Shown here: positions 3,767 to 23,751 of the stretch, piece by piece
How the letters are laid out: each line of letters opens with the position of its first letter
How positions within the stretch are numbered: the first letter of the stretch is position 1
Source: Planctomycetota bacterium
GTDB taxonomy: Bacteria > Planctomycetota > UBA1135 > UBA2386
Reading direction: 5' to 3'
Length of the DNA stretch: 64,000 nt
Assembly: GCA_965223545.1 (NCBI GenBank)
Contig: OZ245006.1
Location: 5,600,001 to 5,664,000, forward strand
The notes under the pieces: model-generated
The model's input: only the letters and a program-made list of their open reading frames with translations
Database searches by the model: none
What the model was told of the DNA's origin: nothing
Program-made: the position numbers and the translations under genes

Positions 3767-4360
3767 ATGAGGCGCGCGGACCTGCCGGACGACCCCTTGG
3801 CGCTGTTTCGCGGCTGGGATGCCGAGGCGCGTGCCGCCGGGGTTCCCGAGCCCGATGCCGCGGCGCTGGCGACCGCCGACTCCGGCGGCCGGCCGTCGTG
3901 CCGCATGGTGCTGGTGCGCGGCGTCGACGCGCGTGGCTTCGCGTTCTACACCAGCTACGAGAGCCGCAAGGGCGAGGAACTGCGCGCCAATCCCGCCGCC
4001 GCCTTGCTCTGGTGGTGGCCGGTGTTGGGCAGGCAAGTGCGGGTCGAAGGCGCGGTCGAGGTGTTGCCGGCGGCGGAGTCGGACGCCTACTTCGCCGGCC
4101 GGCCGCGGGAGAGCCAGATCTCGGCGGCCGCGTCGCCGCAGTCGCGAGCGATCGACGACCGCGCGGCGCTGGTTCGTCTCACCGATGCCCTGGCCGCGCA
4201 AACGGCTGGCGGACCGGTTCGCCGGCCGGCGTGGTGGGGCGGGTTTCGCCTGGCTCCGTCGGCGGTCGAGTTCTGGCAGAACGGCGAGCACCGCCGGCAT
4301 GATCGGTTTCGCTACGAGGTCGGGGCCGGGGGCTGGACCGTCGCGCGGCTCGCGCCTTGA
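3767..4360 (+). CDS. pdxH: Pyridoxamine 5'-phosphate oxidase
   Basis: RMVLVR, FYTSYESRKG, RQVRVEG, YFAGRPRESQI, EFWQ...RRHDRFRY, W...RLAP. Confidence 0.97.
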   Translation: MRRADLPDDPLALFRGWDAEARAAGVPEPDAAALATADSGGRPSCRMVLVRGVDARGFAFYTSYESRKGEELRANPAAALLWWWPVLGRQVRVEGAVEVLPAAESDAYFAGRPRESQISAAASPQSRAIDDRAALVRLTDALAAQTAGGPVRRPAWWGGFRLAPSAVEFWQNGEHRRHDRFRYEVGAGGWTVARLAP

Positions 4361-4387
4361 CGCGCCGGTGCCCGCCGGCGGCGGAGC

Positions 4388-5284
4388 TCACCTCTGGCGG
4401 ATCGGCGTCGCGAAGGCGTCGTGCTCGCGGCGGAGGACGGCCAGGTCCTCGTCGGTGAGCTGCTTCCTGGTGCGGGCGAGCATCTCGAAGAACCACGCCG
4501 CCTCCGGCTCGGTGACCGGACAGCCGACGTTGCCATCGGGACCGACCGAGGTGACCTGCCGAGTGCCGTCCGCCGAGAAGATGGCAAACCACGGCATGCC
4601 ACCCTTCTCGCCGGCGCGCAGCTCGTCGGCGAGCTCGGCACCGCCGGGCATCCGGTCGGTATCGATCTTCACCTCGACGTAGTCGCTGCCGAGGAGGCGG
4701 TGTACTTCGGGGCGCCCGAGGAACTCCTCGAGCTTGAAGCACCAGCCTCACCACGGCGCTGCCAGATGGACCAACAGCTGCTTGCCGCTCTCCTCGGCCT
4801 CGGCGCGGGCGCGTGCGTACACCTCGCGCGCCGCCGGCATCGGCGTGCGCAAGCAGTGCAGGAGCTGGCCGAGCGCGTCGTCGTCGCACTGCTTCAGGAT
4901 CGTGCAGCCGAACTTCGCCAGCAGGCCGCCCTCGGGGTCGTGCACCGTCAGCGTGGGCAGTCGGTGCGGCACCTCCGTGCCCAGCTCGGCGGCAACGGTG
5001 GCGTGCTCGGCGTCTGCCGCCACGACCTCGAACTCGTATCGCAGATACGCGTCGCCGATCTTCAGCTTGGCGAGCCTGGTGGCGCGGTCGGTGACGTCGC
5101 TGTCCGCCGCGGTCCACAACACGGCGAGGCGCTTGGCGCGCGCCGCCGCGATGTCGACCGCGGCGCGCAGCCGGTCCGGCGCCGCGGCCGGCGCCTGGCG
5201 GTCGGGCTGCGCTGTCGCCGGGGCGGGCAGCAACGCGACGGCCAACGCCATCGAGAGGGCGAGCGGGGGAGGGTGAGTGTGCAT
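4388..5284 (-). CDS. Secreted thioredoxin-fold protein, probable selenoprotein (UxxC; Sec at TGA 4748-4750)
   Basis: ORFs 4748..5401 and 4388..4672 are in the same frame; read-through gives LVHLAAPW-U-GWCFKLEEFL...GGMPWFAIF (cis-Pro loop); AGGAG RBS before ATG 5284; signal peptide ending ATA|Q. Confidence 0.85.
4702..4742 (-). promoter_or_regulatory. Putative bacterial SECIS hairpin
   Basis: mRNA after UGA: lower stem GUGCUUC/GAAGUAC, upper stem CUCGAGG-AGUU-CCUCGGG; apical loop begins 22 nt after UGA with G in second position. Confidence 0.65.
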
Positions 5285-5421
5285 CGCTGTGCTCCTGGAT
5301 GCGTGAGCGGTCTGGGGGCGGTCTCGGCGGTCGGCGCCGCGGTCGAAATTCCTGGCCGCTGGGATGGGTCTTCCGCGCGACCTATGCTTTCGATTGAACA
5401 AATCCTAGCGGGAGCTCGACC

Positions 5422-6054
5422 ATGACACTGCGTTTGGGGGACACCGTCCCCGATTTCACCGCCGAGACCACCGAGGGCACGATCTCGTTCCACGACTGGA
5501 TCGGGGATTCCTGGGCGGTGCTGTTCTCGCACCCCAAGGACTTCACTCCGGTCTGCACCACCGAGCTCGGCTACATGGCCGGGTTGAAGAGCGAGTTCGA
5601 CAAGCGCGACACCAAGATCATCGGCCTCAGCGTCGACGATTTGTCGAGCCACGCGGAGTGGTCGGCCGACATTGCCGAGACCCAGGGGCACGCGCCGAAT
5701 TATCCGCTGATCGCCGATCCGGAGCGAAAAGTGGCGGAGCTCTACGGCATGATCCACCCCAACGCGCTCGACTCGCTCACCGTGCGCACCGTGTTCGTCA
5801 TCTCGCCGGCCAAGACGGTGATGATGATGCTCACCTACCCGGCCAGCACCGGCCGCAACTTCGACGAGATCCTGCGGGTGATCGACTCGCTGCAGCTCAC
5901 CGCCAAGCACAAGGTGGCCACCCCGGTGCAGTGGACCCCGGGCGGCGACGTCATCATCGTTCCCGCGCTGTCCGACGAGCAGGCCAAGCCGCTGTTCCCC
6001 AACGGCTGGAAGACCGTCAAGCCCTACCTCCGCGTCGTCCCCCAACCCAACTAA
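5422..6054 (+). CDS. 1-Cys peroxiredoxin (Prx6 subfamily)
   Basis: FSHPKDFTPVCTTE, TYPASTGRNFDEILRVIDSLQLT, VATPVQW. Confidence 0.97.
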   Translation: MTLRLGDTVPDFTAETTEGTISFHDWIGDSWAVLFSHPKDFTPVCTTELGYMAGLKSEFDKRDTKIIGLSVDDLSSHAEWSADIAETQGHAPNYPLIADPERKVAELYGMIHPNALDSLTVRTVFVISPAKTVMMMLTYPASTGRNFDEILRVIDSLQLTAKHKVATPVQWTPGGDVIIVPALSDEQAKPLFPNGWKTVKPYLRVVPQPN

Positions 6055-6116: not shown

Positions 6117-7325
6117 TCAGCCACCCGCTCGACTCCGCTCCTCGAGCGCGGTGTGAATGCGCAGGTCGCCCTCCAGCGTTCGGTGGACGGGACAGCGCTC
6201 GGCGATCTCGCGCAGTCGATCGCGCTGATCGTCGTCGAGTGCGCCACGCAGCGTGAGCCGGCGCTCGATGTGGTCGGTGCGCGCCGCGCCCTCGCCCTTC
6301 TCCTCGGTGCGCCAATGGCGCAGCTCCACCCGCACGTGCTCGAGGTCCCACTTCTTGTGGCGTGCGTACATCCCCAACGTCATCGACGTGCAGGTGCCGA
6401 GGGCGGCGAGCAGGAGGTCGTAGGGAGCGGGTCCGGTGTCGCCGCCGCCGATCGCCACCGGCTCGTCGGCGATCCACGCGTGGCGACCCGCGACCACGGT
6501 TTGCTCGAAGCCGCGCGCGGAGCCCTCGACCACCACGCTCCCGTCGGCCGCGTCGGTCGGTGGCGACGCGTCCACGTAGCGCGCCGCCCACGCCGCCAAC
6601 ACCCCGGCCGCGTACTCGGCGTCGGCACGATCCGAGAGCAGGTGATCGGCATCGTCGAGCGAGACGAAGCTCTTGGGGTGTTGCAGCGCGGCGTACAGCC
6701 GTCGGGCATGGTCGACGTCGACGATCTCGTCGGCCGGTGAGTGCAGGATCAAGACCGGCACGCGGAGTTCGCGCAACCGGTCGCCGAGCCGCTGCTCGTC
6801 CAGATCGTCCAAGAACTGCTTCTTGATGGTGAACGCGCGGCCGGCGATGCGCACGCCGGCGACGCCGCGCGCCTCGATCGTCGATAGCTCGTCCTGTAGC
6901 AGGTGGCGGACGTGCTTGGGATCGCTCGGCGCGCCGATCGTCGCCACCGCCCGCACGCCGTCGATGCGCGCGGCGGCGGCGAGCACGGCGGCGCCACCCA
7001 AGCTGTGGCCGACGAGCAGGGCGGGGGCGCGGTGCACGGCGCGCAGATGCGCCGCCGCATCCACCAGATCGTCGACGTTGGAGGAGAAGTTGGTGTTGGC
7101 AAAGTCTCCCTCGCTGCCGCCCAGACCGGTGAAGTCGAAGCGGAGCACGGCATAGCCGGCGTCGCTCAACGCCCGGCTGACGCGGCTCGCGGCGGCGATG
7201 TCCTTGGAGCAGGTGAAGCAGTGTGCGAACAGGGCGAACGCGCGCGGGGGCCGCGCCGGCCATTCCAGCCTTCCCGCGAGGCGTTCGCCGTCGCGGTTGT
7301 CGAACTCGAGTTTCTCGCTGCGCAT
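6117..7325 (-). CDS. Bifunctional alpha/beta hydrolase / OsmC-family protein
   Basis: FAHCFTCSKD, RFDFTGLG, GHSLGG nucleophile, ADHLL; C-terminal ADEP...GPAPYDLLLAALGTCTSMT...CPVHRTL. Confidence 0.95.
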   Translation of the reverse strand: MRSEKLEFDNRDGERLAGRLEWPARPPRAFALFAHCFTCSKDIAAASRVSRALSDAGYAVLRFDFTGLGGSEGDFANTNFSSNVDDLVDAAAHLRAVHRAPALLVGHSLGGAAVLAAAARIDGVRAVATIGAPSDPKHVRHLLQDELSTIEARGVAGVRIAGRAFTIKKQFLDDLDEQRLGDRLRELRVPVLILHSPADEIVDVDHARRLYAALQHPKSFVSLDDADHLLSDRADAEYAAGVLAAWAARYVDASPPTDAADGSVVVEGSARGFEQTVVAGRHAWIADEPVAIGGGDTGPAPYDLLLAALGTCTSMTLGMYARHKKWDLEHVRVELRHWRTEEKGEGAARTDHIERRLTLRGALDDDQRDRLREIAERCPVHRTLEGDLRIHTALEERSRAGG

Positions 7326-7332
7326 CACCACG

Positions 7333-7373
7333 ATCTTAGAGGGCTGCGCTTCGGTGGCGCAGCCTCCTAAGAT
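7333..7373. promoter_or_regulatory. Palindromic divergent promoter region between hydrolase-OsmC and phoX
   Basis: 17-bp arms ATCTTAGAGGGCTGCGC / GCGCAGCCTCCTAAGAT (2 mismatches) around a 7-nt loop; TAAGAT lies 7 nt before the ATG on each strand. Confidence 0.6.
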
Positions 7374-7380
7374 GTCGCCC

Positions 7381-9399
7381 ATGTCCGGACCGGCTGCCGA
7401 GTTCGAGGCCCTGCTGCGGGCGCGCATGAGCCGCCGCGCGTTCGCCGCCGGCCTTGCCGCGGGCGCAGGGCTCGCCCGTGGTCGAGCCTCGCGTGCAGCC
7501 GCCCCTCCGGCACGCCCCCGCGTGAAGTTCCGCGGCCTGGGCGCCGGCATCTCCGCGGACGACCGCGTCGCCGACGGCTACCGCGCCGACGTGTTGATCG
7601 CCTGGGGAGACCCGGTGCTGCCGGGGGCGCCGCCGTTTCGCCCGAGCGCGCTCACCGCCGAGGCGCAGGCCTCGCAGTTCGGCGCCAACGCGGACTACTT
7701 GGCGTTCTTGCCGCTGCCGCGCGGCTCGGTGCGCTCCGATCACGGTCTGCTGTGCGTCAACCACGAGTTCACCAAGGCCGTGGCGATGTTCGACGGCCTC
7801 GGCGACAGCTACCTGAGCGCTCGCGAGCGCTCGACCGCCGCCCAGGCCGCGGTCGAGCTGCAAGCGCACGGCCACAGCGTGTTGGAGATCCGGCGCGACG
7901 CTGCGGGCGCGGTCAGGGTGGTCGACGACAGCGTATTCGCGCGGCGGGTGACCGCGACTACCCCGATCGAGTTGCGGGGCCCGGCGGCGGGCCACGCCCG
8001 ACTGCGGACTGCGGCCGATCCCACTGGTCGGTTGGTGCGCGGCACGTTCGCCGACTGCGCGGGCGGCGTCACTCCGTGGGGCACCGTGCTGATCGCCGAA
8101 GAGAACTTCGACGAGTACTTCTGGGGGGACCCGGAAGCGCTTCCGGGGGCGGACCAACTGCGGCGCTACACCGTCGGCCGCGAGCCGGAGTACGGCTGGG
8201 GGCGGTCGGCTGTCGAGCCCGGTATCGACGCTGTTCTGCGCGACGAGCTGCGGCGGTTCGACCTGCAGCACGAGCCCAACGAGTGCAACCGATTCGGTTG
8301 GGTCGTCGAGCTCGATCCCTACGACCCCGCGTCCCGGCCGGTGAAGCGCACCGCCCTGGGGCGTTTCAAGCACGAGAGTGCGACGGTCGTCGTCAGCGGG
8401 TCGGGCCGCGTGGTCGTGTACTCGGGCGACGATGAGGAGTTCGAGTACCTGTACCGCTACGTCAGTGACGGGACCGTCGACGAGCACGCGGGATTCGACT
8501 CCGACCTCCTCGACCGCGGCGTGCTCAGCGCGGCGCGGTTCGACGCCGACGGAACCCTCACCTGGTTGCCGCTGATCTTCGGTAAGGGTGGTTTGACGCC
8601 CGACAACGGATTCGCCGACCAGGCCGAGGTCTTGCTGTGGGCGCGGCGGGCGGCGGACATCGCCGGCGCGACCCCGCTCGATCGCCCCGAGGATGTCGAG
8701 GTGGACCCGCGGACCGGCGGCGTGCTGGTCGCATTGACCAACAACCTGGCGCGGACGGAAGAGCAGGTCGATGGCGCCAACCCGCGGCCGCGCAACTCCG
8801 CGGGGCACTTGCTCGAGCTGCTGCCGCCGGGCGACACGGACGCGCTCCGCCACGACGCGCCGTCCTTTCGCTGGAACGTCTTCCTACTGGGAGGGGCGGA
8901 CGCCAGGCCAGGCGACGAGGGAGCGGATCGATTGTCGGCTCCGGCCTGGGCGGCCGGGTTGCGCTGTCCCGACAACTTGGCCTTCGATCCGTCCGGCCGA
9001 CTCTGGATCGCGACCGACGGCAGTCCCACCACCTTTGCCGACGACGTACCGCTGGCGCGGCGGATGCCGGATGGTCTGTGGGCGATCGAAGAGGATGCGG
9101 GGGGTGCGCGCCGGCCCCTGCTGTTGTACGCGTGTCCCAACGGTGCCGAGTTGTGTGGGCCGTGCTTCACGCCCGATGGCGAGACGCTGTTCGTCGCCGT
9201 CCAGCACCCAGGCGGCGGCGCGCCGTTCGCGAGGTCGCCGACGCGCTGGCCCGCGGGAAGGCCGGGAGTGCGGCCGCTGCGCGGCGGTCCGCCGCCGCCG
9301 CGCTCCGCGGTGGTCGTGATCGCCAAGCAAAGACCCGATGCGGCCGGCGACAGCGGAGCGGACGACCCCGGCGGGTTCGACCCGCGGATCGGGAGCTGA
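7381..9399 (+). CDS. phoX: PhoX-family alkaline phosphatase (DUF839), Tat-exported
   Basis: Tat motif SRRAF; LLCVNHEF, CAGGVTPWGTVLIAEEN, KRTALGRFKHE, VVYSGDD, DRPEDV, PDNLAF, ATDG, ELCGPCFTPDG..LFVAVQHPG. Confidence 0.95.
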   Translation: MSGPAAEFEALLRARMSRRAFAAGLAAGAGLARGRASRAAAPPARPRVKFRGLGAGISADDRVADGYRADVLIAWGDPVLPGAPPFRPSALTAEAQASQFGANADYLAFLPLPRGSVRSDHGLLCVNHEFTKAVAMFDGLGDSYLSARERSTAAQAAVELQAHGHSVLEIRRDAAGAVRVVDDSVFARRVTATTPIELRGPAAGHARLRTAADPTGRLVRGTFADCAGGVTPWGTVLIAEENFDEYFWGDPEALPGADQLRRYTVGREPEYGWGRSAVEPGIDAVLRDELRRFDLQHEPNECNRFGWVVELDPYDPASRPVKRTALGRFKHESATVVVSGSGRVVVYSGDDEEFEYLYRYVSDGTVDEHAGFDSDLLDRGVLSAARFDADGTLTWLPLIFGKGGLTPDNGFADQAEVLLWARRAADIAGATPLDRPEDVEVDPRTGGVLVALTNNLARTEEQVDGANPRPRNSAGHLLELLPPGDTDALRHDAPSFRWNVFLLGGADARPGDEGADRLSAPAWAAGLRCPDNLAFDPSGRLWIATDGSPTTFADDVPLARRMPDGLWAIEEDAGGARRPLLLYACPNGAELCGPCFTPDGETLFVAVQHPGGGAPFARSPTRWPAGRPGVRPLRGGPPPPRSAVVVIAKQRPDAAGDSGADDPGGFDPRIGS

Positions 9400-20928: not shown

Positions 20929-23751
20929 ATGCCCGTGCGCTGTGTCTTGGTTCTGCTCGCTGCCGCGGGGGTCCTGCGTGGTCAGACCACCGTCCCCCCC
21001 GACTGGGCGCTGCGCCCGCTTCCCGCCCACGTCTCGGTGCCGCCGGTATCGGACGCGTGGATCACCAACGAGATCGACGCGTTCGTCTTGGCGCGGGCCC
21101 GCGCGGCGGGGCTCGAGCCGTCGCCGGTCGCCGACCGGCGTACCTTGCTGCGTCGCTTGTCCTACGACCTGACGGGGTTGCCGCCGACCACGGCGGAGCT
21201 GGCGGCGTTCGACGCCCACGATGCTGACGATGCTGACCGGGCGTTCGACGCGGCCGTCGAGCGGCTGTTGGCATCGCCTCGCTACGGCGAACGCATGGCG
21301 ACGCCCTGGCTCGATGCCGCGCGCTACGCCGACACGCTGGGCTACCAGGCCGACCGCGAGCAGCGGGTCTGGCCCTGGCGCGACTGGGTGGTGGCGGCGT
21401 TCAACCAGAATCTGCCCTACGATGACTTCCTGACCTGGCAGCTCGCCGGCGACCTGCTGCCGGATGCCACCCGCGCGCAGCGACTCGCGACCACCTTCCA
21501 ACGGCTGCACCGGCAGACCGAGGAGGGCGGCACCGTCGAGGAGGAGTTTCGCGTCGAGTACGGCGCCGATCGAGTCGACACGTTCGGCACGGCCATGCTC
21601 GGCTTGACGGTGGGTTGCGCACGGTGTCACGACCACAAGCACGATCCGATCAGTGCGCGCGACTACTACGGCCTGTGGGCGATGTTCGCCAACATCGACG
21701 AATCGGGACAGACGAGTCACTTCACCGACGCAGTGCCGGTGCCGGCGCTGGCTTTGCCGACCGCGGACGACACGCGGGCCATGGCGGGGTTGGCGCGGCG
21801 CGTGGCCGATGCCGAGATGGGACTGCGCCTGGCGCGCGCGGCTGTGCCGGCGACCGGCGCGCTGGCGCCGCCGCTCGTGGATGCGGTGGCGCACTATCCG
21901 CTGGAATCGGTCGGCGGAGAGGGCGCGTTGGCGAACCGCGTCGCCGGCGGTCGCGGCGGGGTGGCGGTCGACGGCCCGGAGCCGATCGATGGCGTGCGGG
22001 GACGCGGTCTGCGGCTCGACGGCGAGAACGGGCTCGAGTTCGAGGGCGTGGGCAGCGCACACAGCGCGCAGCCGTTCTCGGTGGCGATCTCGCTGTTGCT
22101 ACCGCATGTCTACGACCGTGCGGTCGTGATCCACAAGAGCAGGGCGGCGTTGGACGCCGGCAGCCGCGGCTGGCAGCTCTTGATCGAGGACGGCGCACTG
22201 GTCGCGGTCTTGGCGCACATGTGGCCGCACGACGCGGCGGCGGTGCGCGCGCGGCGACCGTTGCCGCTCGGTCGTTGGGTGTCGGTGGCGATGACCCATG
22301 ACGGCTCGCGGCGCGCCGGTGGTGTCCGCCTGTTCGTCGACGGGCTGCCGGTGGCGACCGATGTCATCCGCGACGGTCTGCGCGGCGATCTCGTGTACGA
22401 GCGCGGCGGCGAGCCTCCGATGGTGGTCGGGCAGCGGTTTCGCGACCGCGGTCTGGCCGGTGGTGGGGTCGACGAGATCTGGTGGTTCGCGCGGCAGCTG
22501 TCGGCGCTCGAGGTGCTCGAGCTGGCGCGGCCGGGCGCATTCGCCGCGGCGGTCGCCGGTGCCCCCGATCTCCGCCATTCGCTCGCCGAGCACCGGCGTC
22601 ACAGCGATGCGGGCGTGCGCCGCCTGCGCCAGGTGGTGTTCGAGGCGCGTGATGCCCACCGCCAGCGGCTGGCGGCCGTGCCGCAGATCATGACCATGGT
22701 GGAGATGCCGCGGCGCCGCCCGGCGTTCGTCCTGCAGCGCGGTGCGTACGACGCGCCGGGCGAAGCGGTCGAGCCGAGCACACCTGCCGTGCTGCCGCCG
22801 TTCGGCGCGCGCCGCCGCGATCGCCTGGGGCTGGCGCAGTGGTTGGTGCAGCCGGATCACCCGCTCACCGCGCGCGTCGCCGTCAATCGTTTCTGGCATG
22901 TCTTGATGGGCCGCGGTTTGGTGGAGACGGTCGAGGACTTCGGCAGCCAAGGCGCGCGGCCGACGCACCCCGCGCTGCTGGACTGGCTGGCGCGTCGCTT
23001 CGTCGACTCGGGGTGGGACGTCAAGGCGCTGGTCCGTGACATCGTGCGGTCATCGACCTACCGGCAGGCCAGTGGTGGCGGCGCGCCGTCCGCCACGCGC
23101 TGGTGGATTGGCGCGGCCGAGCATCGCTGGCCGGCGGAAATGCTGCGCGACGCCGCGCTGGCGGCGGCTGGCCTGCTGGTGGAAAGGGTCGGTGGGCCTC
23201 CGGTCAAGCCGTACCAGCCGGACGGGCTGTGGAGGGAGAAGTCGGGAGCGCGCTATGTGCCCGACGACGGCGAGGGGCTCTACCGGCGCAGCCTCTACAC
23301 GTACTTCAAACGGACTTCTCCGCCGCCGTCGATGATCTTGTTCGACGCTGCCCGGCGGTTGACTTGTCAGGTCCGGCGGCCGGTGACCACGACTCCCCTG
23401 CAGGCGTTGGTGTTGTGGAACGACCCACAGTGGGTCGAAGCGGCCCGCTGCACGGCCGAGGCGGCGTTCGCAGGCGTTCCGGAGAGCGGTCCGGCGGGCG
23501 ATCGAGCGCGGTTGGCGGCCGTTTTCGAGGCTCTCCTGGGGCGCGCCCCCAACCTGGCCGAGCAACCCGTGCTCGCGGCGATGCTGGCGGAACAACGGCA
23601 GGCCTTCGCGGCGGAGCCGGCATCGGCCGAGGCGTGGGTGGCGGTCGGCAGTCGGCCGGTGGCCGCGGTGGCGAGCGCGGTCGAGATCGCGGCGCTCGGG
23701 ATCGTGGTCAGTGGGCTGCACTGCCACGATGGGTTCTTGCGCCGGCGTTGA
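20929..23751 (+). CDS. Planctomycete DUF1549/DUF1553 (PSD1) protein with central LamG-like domain
   Basis: [87 protein letters not shown]. Confidence 0.93.

Follow-up and report, generated by a model that had tools for sequence, protein, structure and literature searches.

Two minus-strand pieces that gene callers separate at a TGA codon in a Planctomycetota genome are with near certainty parts of a single gene whose product is a secreted redox enzyme containing selenocysteine (Sec). On the comparative sequence evidence assembled here, there is very little doubt that SelB and tRNA-Sec would decode UGA179 as selenocysteine, directed by a hairpin with an AGUU loop, to give a product of 298 aa. 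It probably has its place in a repair chain of the cell envelope, the other members of which rely on selenium as well.

Gene Structure and Reading Frame

The gene lies within the window, by which we mean the whole stretch of 64,000 nucleotides that was analysed; its features are collected in Table 1. Read on the minus strand from 5284 to 4388, the frame of 298 codons contains a single internal TGA, codon 179 (4750-4748), in the context LAAPW-TGA-GWCFK. A preliminary description of this DNA had joined two minus-strand ORFs into one frame across TGA 4748-4750 and had placed that TGA at the first Cys of a thioredoxin motif. Both points are borne out: the codon falls in the W-x-G-W-C site of a Thioredoxin_7 domain, where many homologues carry Cys. 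The halves on either side of the TGA are both coding-like, with GC3 values of 0.94 and 0.92. The expectation that gene callers would split the gene was likewise correct, ordinary ORF calling ending one piece at 4748 and starting another, of 94 aa, at 4672, while a public protein collection holds a 178-aa piece (P0002) cut off at the TGA. Annotation cuts the gene at its active site, and searches therefore see only Cys forms; all seven other matches in a protein search have Cys.

The predicted N terminus reaches a hydropathy of 2.5 over 11 residues, and its first residues lack Lys and Arg. By a rough hydropathy test, 92 of 105 homologues from the same class likewise have a hydrophobic stretch ahead of the first domain. 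A promoter scan of the gene found no sigma-70 site, and three Rfam miRNA matches, weak and far below the cut-off, were set aside as chance. No recurring cluster was seen in relatives for the peroxiredoxin neighbourhood of the gene. Elsewhere, the window holds an alpha/beta hydrolase-OsmC fusion (6117-about 7325, minus strand), a PhoX phosphatase (7198-9399, plus strand) and a tRNA-Ala (21795-21872, plus strand), all ordinary. A public contig (run X1) covers the full stretch with zero differences and is possibly the source of this very DNA; a second contig (run X4) is identical over 4300-4753 and stops three letters beyond the TGA, but comes from the same study and hence counts neither as independent nor as a bridge across the site.

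Table 1. Features of the gene, its flanks and its two-Sec relatives (positions in the window, or locus identifiers)
Feature	Position	Strand	Remarks
Whole gene	4388..5284	-	298 aa, Sec at residue 179; stop is the second TGA (4390-4388); homologues share the layout
In-frame TGA, Sec179 (predicted)	4748..4750	-	Nucleophilic position of U-G-W-C
Cys182, resolving Cys	4739..4741	-	Invariant in alignments A1 and A5
Shine-Dalgarno-like AGGAG	5292..5296	-	7 nt upstream of ATG 5284
Signal-peptide-like N terminus, residues 1-25	5210..5284	-	Hydrophobic core, A-T-A then Q26; from hydropathy only
Domain 1, residues ~34-148	4841..5185	-	Thioredoxin fold, duplicate of domain 2; CxxC replaced by S-D-V-T
Domain 2, residues ~150-298	4391..4837	-	Catalytic Thioredoxin_7 domain with two extra C-terminal helices
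Pro231 of G-M-P-W	4592..4594	-	Invariant
Cys255 in G-N-V-G-C-P	4520..4522	-	Directly ahead of the next helix; from alignment and model
Full two-tier hairpin	4702..4742	-	Lower tier not conserved in relatives
SECIS core	4714..4733	-	8-bp stem, AGUU loop at 4725-4722, inside the K-L-E-E-F-L-G-R codons
Divergent neighbour, 1-Cys peroxiredoxin	5422..6054	+	Plain Cys, no signal-like start
Convergent neighbour, pyridoxamine 5'-phosphate oxidase	3767..4360	+	Unrelated
TlpA/redoxin fusions, two predicted Sec per chain	L011, L025, L029, L031, L190, L193, L195-L197, L199-L201, L203, L206-L208		

Selenium Machinery and Conservation of the TGA

The preliminary description had proposed looking for selA, selB, selC and selD, and all four are present. 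In the genome (G000, 91% complete), selA, selB and selD all exceed their curated cut-offs, and a tRNA-Sec (selC) with a UCA anticodon is present; selD itself contains an in-frame TGA followed by a hairpin. Among 40 relatives, selA was found in all 40 and tRNA-Sec in 37, so the Cys forms described below also occur in Sec-capable genomes.

The codon 179 position alternates between TGA and Cys. The best 30 loci from 41 genomes comprise 16 with TGA and 14 with Cys, and a profile search of an even sample of 201 genomes from the class gave 106 matches in 103 genomes, all of which were fetched: 64 have TGA, 40 Cys, one Ser, and one lacks the motif. The expectation of a conserved UGA aligned with Cys in homologues thus held, TGA being kept across many genera and families. 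A match was found in 49 of 401 genomes sampled across the phylum. The exact pattern of UGA plus hairpin occurs in at least 120 metagenome stretches, and the titles returned by a GTDB scan were nearly all Planctomycetota or unspecified bacteria. Mariniblastus contributed Sec forms and Phycisphaerae contributed Cys forms. The metagenome pattern and the GTDB scan were both built from Sec forms, and hence show spread rather than proportions. One TGA form in a record titled Verrucomicrobiales (L287) has Tyr for the resolving Cys (W-U-G-W-Y) and could be a misbinned contig or a variant.

A Conserved Hairpin Follows the TGA

The RNA spanning 4702-4742 folds at −21.3 kcal/mol (z −4.39), and none of 200 shuffled sequences folded as well. 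In this genome of 70% GC, 390 of 19,401 sampled TGA triplets (2.0%) precede an equally strong stem with a G-led loop, so the hairpin alone is not decisive. The two-tier structure proposed in the preliminary description does fold as drawn, yet only its 8-bp upper tier, in which 4733-4726 pair with 4721-4714, is conserved. Similarly, the 22 nt given there between the UGA and a G in the apical loop is in fact the spacer to the AGUU loop, of which the G is the second base (4724).

These dimensions can be compared with the bacterial SECIS (bSECIS) model, in which a loop of 3-9 nt with G within its first two positions caps an upper stem of 4-16 bp (PMC13188914, Figure 2 legend), lying 16-37 nt from the UGA with an energy of −7.5 kcal/mol or lower. 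The element here agrees with all four constraints of the model (PMC13188914, section 5), with a 4-nt loop (AGUU), an 8-bp stem, a 22-nt spacer and energies of −13.1 kcal/mol for the upper stem and −21.3 kcal/mol for both tiers.

Comparison across relatives ties the hairpin to the TGA. Within the class sample, the AGUU hairpin follows 56 of 64 TGA forms and none of 40 Cys forms, the other eight TGA forms lacking it, and the same hairpin was present in 12 of 12 TGA forms fetched from outside the order. Synonymous positions in the stem are fixed: the second Leu is encoded by CTC in 56 of 60 cases, as against 37% of Leu codons elsewhere in these genes. Compensatory double changes (G-C to A-U, C-G to U-A and G-C to C-G) were found at three of the eight stem pairs in 16 rows, a result equalled by none of 500 shuffles. 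The RNA also constrains the protein, since the stretch encoded by the hairpin reads L-E-E-F-L in Sec forms and mostly L-E-D-W-M in Cys forms.

These results bear on the possibility that a nonsense mutation or assembly error has broken a Cys gene, or that the two pieces are separate genes. TGC becomes TGA by one base change, and public gene calls do end at the TGA (P0002). Against this, TGA stands at the identical codon in 64 of the 106 class matches and across the phylum, an intact conserved domain always follows it, and the hairpin behind it is missing from Cys forms. The preliminary description had itself named Cys-only relatives without a conserved hairpin as the case that would point to a pseudogene; instead, the hairpin tracks the TGA and carries compensatory changes. 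As a general account, breakage or error is excluded by the recurring TGA, the intact downstream domain and the TGA-linked hairpin, and for this gene we regard it as extremely improbable.

Two Predicted Thioredoxin Folds, One Inactive

The read-through protein matches Pfam Thioredoxin_7 (PF13899) over residues 156-237 with 40.8 bits, against a cut-off of 27. Its predicted model (pLDDT 91.5) contains two thioredoxin folds, with Z scores of 11-12.5 for both halves. We take Pro231 to occupy the position of the thioredoxin cis-Pro.

Domain 1 is a non-catalytic duplicate of domain 2. It matches a profile of CxxC-bearing N domains (E 2.7e-6) and thioredoxins with Z about 12 over model residues 9-123; a direct BLAST comparison of the query's two domains gave no alignment, and the duplication comes from the profiles and from relatives. 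The preliminary description had called this region a Cys-less thioredoxin-like unit. It is indeed a second thioredoxin fold, whose CxxC has been lost (S62-D-V-T65), but it does contain Cys residues, C127, C133 and C144, none of which is a conserved column in alignment A5.

Two features differ between TGA and Cys forms in the class. At the position of Cys255, Cys is found in 44 of the 64 TGA forms, a further 16 of which have G, A or F, and in 10 of the 40 Cys forms, while the N-domain W-C-x-W-C is kept in 31 of 40 Cys forms as against 5 of 56 AGUU forms. Once kinship is taken into account, neither loss of the N-domain CxxC nor C255 is significantly linked to Sec (two independent well-supported pairs, p 0.5-1), and beyond the class the N-domain CxxC is retained by many TGA forms.

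Architecture and Evolution of the Family

Many members are single-domain proteins. Conversely, a TlpA/redoxin domain stands at the N terminus of 14 of the 56 AGUU forms and brings a further in-frame TGA, in W-U-x-P-C, and two relatives (L247 and L219) have a TGA in the N domain. Two members (L014 and L019) are fused to a Dioxygenase_C domain, and three (L036, L037 and L253) to an N-terminal domain that, by its motif, we take to be glutathione peroxidase-like. When the neighbours of 166 non-redundant loci were clustered with antisense frames omitted, only TlpA-type partners and lineage-local neighbours recurred.

A quick tree was built from 128 rows and 144 columns, with the hairpin-coded residues masked and L255 and L256 left out; 49 of its 124 forks are open. 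All 68 AGUU-type rows fall inside one group of 80 rows (support 86, open) together with 10 Cys rows. L244, which has Cys, has a two-Sec row as its sister with support 98, a placement that suggests a return to Cys. TGA forms with hairpins other than AGUU (L035, L198 and L230, which share a UGGAU loop, L215 and L219, and the N domain of L247) lie on the tree among Cys forms; of the eight TGA forms in the class that lack the AGUU hairpin, six do so, folding other hairpins, three of them with the UGGAU loop, which suggests separate gains of Sec. The Sec/Cys label changes 12 times on this unrooted tree, and well-supported branches force two or three of the changes. Taken together, the sequences suggest repeated conversion of Cys to Sec, a separate hairpin being written on each occasion into the helix after the active site, and at least one return to Cys; on this unrooted tree the direction of change is suggestive only.

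The Envelope Redox Setting

A single DsbD, with alpha, membrane and gamma domains, is encoded in G000 (C1:4306330-4308645, minus strand; L390), 1.3 Mb from the family gene. The CxxC of its gamma domain reads T-TGA-V-N-C, and TGA stands at that position in 27 of 30 motif-bearing loci among the 31 collected; in a search of the class, about 129 of the 150 matches listed, counted by eye, contain a TGA. A separate entry for Sec-DsbD was not found in the available part of the PMC13188914 catalogue.

Of 27 genomes that have both genes, five place the family gene and dsbD no more than 12 kb apart, four of these five cases belonging to one Cys-form branch. Cys forms lie 0.2-7 kb from dsbD at G002:C200, G006:C94, G010:C1 and G016:C418; in three of these loci the family gene is followed by a gene for an HtrA-type protease. 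Three genomes that carry the family gene (G029, G031 and G038) gave no match to the DsbD query. DsbB and VKOR were detected in none of 41 genomes (G000 and 40 relatives) in which controls were detected; these genomes are 69-95% complete, so non-detection is not absence.

A rough scan of G000 gave 261 coding-like TGA sites, 94 of them with some hairpin and mostly noise, from which 22 were picked by motif and folded, 19 scanned against NCBIfam, and six, together with DsbD, against Pfam. Signal-like starts occur among them in TlpA/ResA-like and thioredoxin UxxC proteins, a BCP-type peroxiredoxin and an MsrA. Loci L338-L356 supply about 20 in-frame TGA candidates, all with a motif and most with a hairpin: deiodinase-like proteins (two), TlpA/ResA and thioredoxin UxxC proteins (at least six), MsrA, BCP, AhpD-like, DUF3179 and HMA proteins, another Thioredoxin_7 protein, and a VPGUxxT-MsrA double-TGA protein that scores above the cut-off of NF041383. 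Two of these loci may encode uncatalogued selenoproteins: an FG-GAP protein with N-N-W-U-C and a hairpin (L342; G000:C1:492917, plus strand) and a protein that matches nothing in Pfam or NCBIfam and has G-F-L-U-S-A-G and a hairpin (L351; G000:C1:6247186, minus strand).

An OxyR Gene with an In-Frame TGA

The oxyR gene of G000 (C1:3908200-3909099, plus strand; L337:2201-3100) contains a TGA at C1:3908806, in the context E-G-H-TGA-L-R, at what we take to be the peroxide-sensing Cys, labelled C199. Its product scores 271 bits on NF008361, whose cut-off is 329. The position is Cys in 26 of 29 fetched relatives and was not called in the other three. A perfect 7-bp hairpin with a GGUCU loop lies 20 nt after the TGA, and a full match to it was found in none of the 26 Cys relatives. 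Among 92 matches in 201 class genomes this is the only case with TGA, and because it stands alone a recent gain of Sec cannot be separated from a nonsense change or error; the gene possibly encodes a selenocysteine transcription factor, or is broken. The pattern was also run against the 401 phylum genomes, where its two further matches were not OxyR and were discarded. Divergent from oxyR is a peroxiredoxin gene (G000:C1:3907484, minus strand; L337) with a P-T-U catalytic site and, by eye, a glutaredoxin-like tail.

Proposed Function and Its Alternatives

Recoding of UGA179 combined with a role as a DsbD-fed thiol-disulfide reductase of the envelope is the best explanation as a whole, and one that we consider fairly probable. 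After export, the U179 selenolate would attack a substrate disulfide or oxidised Cys, C182 would resolve the mixed bond, and DsbD, the electron carrier in the membrane, would then reduce the resulting Se-S bond again. Domain 1, the dead duplicate, probably binds substrate or partner; oxidised proteins of the envelope are likely clients, as are peroxiredoxin and MsrA enzymes that are exported. We infer export, the direction of the reaction, DsbD as donor, the substrates and the roles of domain 1 and C255. That the protein is an exported, soluble envelope reductase seems moderately likely, and is the leading assignment because of analogy with the ScsB-TlpA-PprX and DsbD-DsbG pathways (PMC3322552); there, ScsB/DsbD passes electrons through TlpA to a periplasmic peroxiredoxin, and DsbH is treated as a reducing periplasmic thioredoxin-like protein in PMC5193440. 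The single DsbD with TGA in its gamma domain, the non-detection of DsbB and VKOR in the 41 genomes and the dsbD-linked loci favour a DsbD-fed reductase. Several observations weigh against it: TlpA-type partners are the only conserved neighbours, four of the five dsbD-linked cases fall in one branch, dsbD is distant in G000, three genomes with the family gene gave no DsbD match, and at least six other thioredoxin-fold UxxC candidates in G000 could be DsbD clients instead.

The main alternative is a selenoprotein acting mainly as a disulfide isomerase or foldase, in which the dead domain 1 would bind unfolded clients as the non-catalytic domains of protein disulfide isomerases (PDIs) do, and the Cys forms with two CxxC domains would act like two-site isomerases. 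The tandem thioredoxin folds, one of them inactive, fit this picture, PDIs are the best Foldseek rows, and the solved single domain closest in both sequence and fold, 3FK8 (E 9e-15; Z 12.5, rmsd 2.8, 121 aligned), is titled a disulphide isomerase; the HtrA-type protease genes beside three Cys-form loci point the same way. Yet the PDI matches have a TM of about 0.3 and an rmsd of 13-15, so the domain arrangement differs, the title of 3FK8 is its depositor's label, single-domain members are many, and an envelope in which neither DsbB nor VKOR was found may have few wrong disulfides to shuffle. We hold an isomerase to be unlikely. Direct reduction of peroxides or small oxidants, in which C255 would serve as an additional resolving Cys close to U179, is improbable: enrichment of C255 in TGA forms favours it, as do the fusions of relatives to TlpA/AhpC-TSA domains and the placing of C255 in a loop that presumably precedes the helix flanking the active site in thioredoxin, but C182 is kept in essentially all forms, as expected of ordinary dithiol chemistry, and C255 gives way to G, A or F in a quarter of TGA forms and has no significant link to Sec on the tree. 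Very improbable is a DsbA-like oxidase that inserts disulfides into exported proteins; the predicted export and the CxxC-type site of a thioredoxin fold would suit it, whereas DsbB and VKOR were not found in the 41 genomes and no DsbA-type Pfam or NCBIfam model matches.

The reductase reading can be extended to a bolder one, to which we give somewhat less than even credence: an envelope reducing chain of these Planctomycetota wired through Sec at each step, with the product of this gene as one carrier. Electrons would pass from the gamma domain of Sec-DsbD to Sec-Thioredoxin_7 and Sec-TlpA carriers and from these to Sec-peroxiredoxin and Sec-MsrA that are exported, all in an envelope where neither DsbB nor VKOR can be detected; in G000, the sensor OxyR may also have taken up Sec.

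Significance and Relation to Known Systems

The gene adds a large uncatalogued selenoprotein family, present in about half of the class genomes and in the metagenome stretches counted above, and directs attention to a redox system in the Planctomycetota envelope that is rich in selenium. The family is also a natural test set for the origin of a SECIS within a coding helix, a clean one because L-E-E-F-L (Sec) and L-E-D-W-M (Cys) occur in genomes that all have SelA.

The literature searched, mostly abstracts together with parts of PMC13188914, PMC12013277, PMC5193440 and PMC3322552, contains no description of the family, of Planctomycetota selenoproteins or of Sec-OxyR, and a prior listing is possible. 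Planctomycetota go unmentioned in the available part of a 2026 review on the selenoproteomes of prokaryotes, the text of PMC13188914 does not name PF13899, and all representative sequences in deep-Sep supplement 3 lack U-G-W-C. The query stays below the cut-off of every NCBIfam model; in the ESM Atlas, the Cys form has a Planctomycetota cluster that bears a generic name. Since no NCBIfam model or checked catalogue entry covers it, this is a new, uncatalogued family of a well-known kind.

Thioredoxin-fold UxxC selenoproteins are the commonest predicted kind in bacteria. The family resembles them in having Sec at the CxxC nucleophile, a SECIS 3' of the UGA within the coding sequence, and Cys homologues; unlike the catalogued kinds, it is predicted to be exported and has two Thioredoxin_7-type domains, one inactive, and a U-G-W-C site. 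Catalogued examples include thioredoxin (PF00085), thiol:disulfide interchange protein (PF13098) and redoxin (PF08534) (PMC13188914, Table 1). Against PF13098 our protein scores 19 bits with a cut-off of 27, and the representative selenoprotein of that kind, WP_011366075.1, compared by eye, has U-I-G-C, no signal-like start and a different C-terminal part. The Trx7/PDZ (seleno)protein NF041199, the only Trx7 entry in the available part of the 2026 catalogue, shares with the predicted protein a signal peptide and a Thioredoxin_7 domain with Sec, but has CxxU and a fused PDZ domain, whereas this gene has UxxC, no PDZ match and 12 bits against a cut-off of 300, and so is not a member. The DsbH model NF043050 was not among the query's matches at E 0.1 and matched other members weakly (best E 1.4e-7), and the N-terminal Pfam domain of DsbC found no match in the query.

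Structurally, the Xylella fastidiosa protein 3FK8, Chlamydia DsbH (2JU5) and DsbD gamma belong to the same thioredoxin branch, with an N-terminal helix before the first strand, but are single Cys domains of 20-25% identity with neither the duplicated domain nor the G-N-x-G-C-P loop. Eukaryotic PDIs likewise combine active and inactive thioredoxin domains in one exported chain, a resemblance of design rather than membership, our protein having two domains only and a different packing (TM about 0.3). At the level of pathways, the ScsB-TlpA-PprX system of Caulobacter and the DsbD-DsbC/DsbG system of E. coli (PMC3322552) have counterparts in G000 in a membrane carrier, thioredoxin-like carriers and an exported peroxiredoxin; unlike in those systems, the carrier, several of the thioredoxin-like proteins, a peroxiredoxin and an MsrA of G000, with putative links between them, have in-frame TGA at the catalytic Cys.
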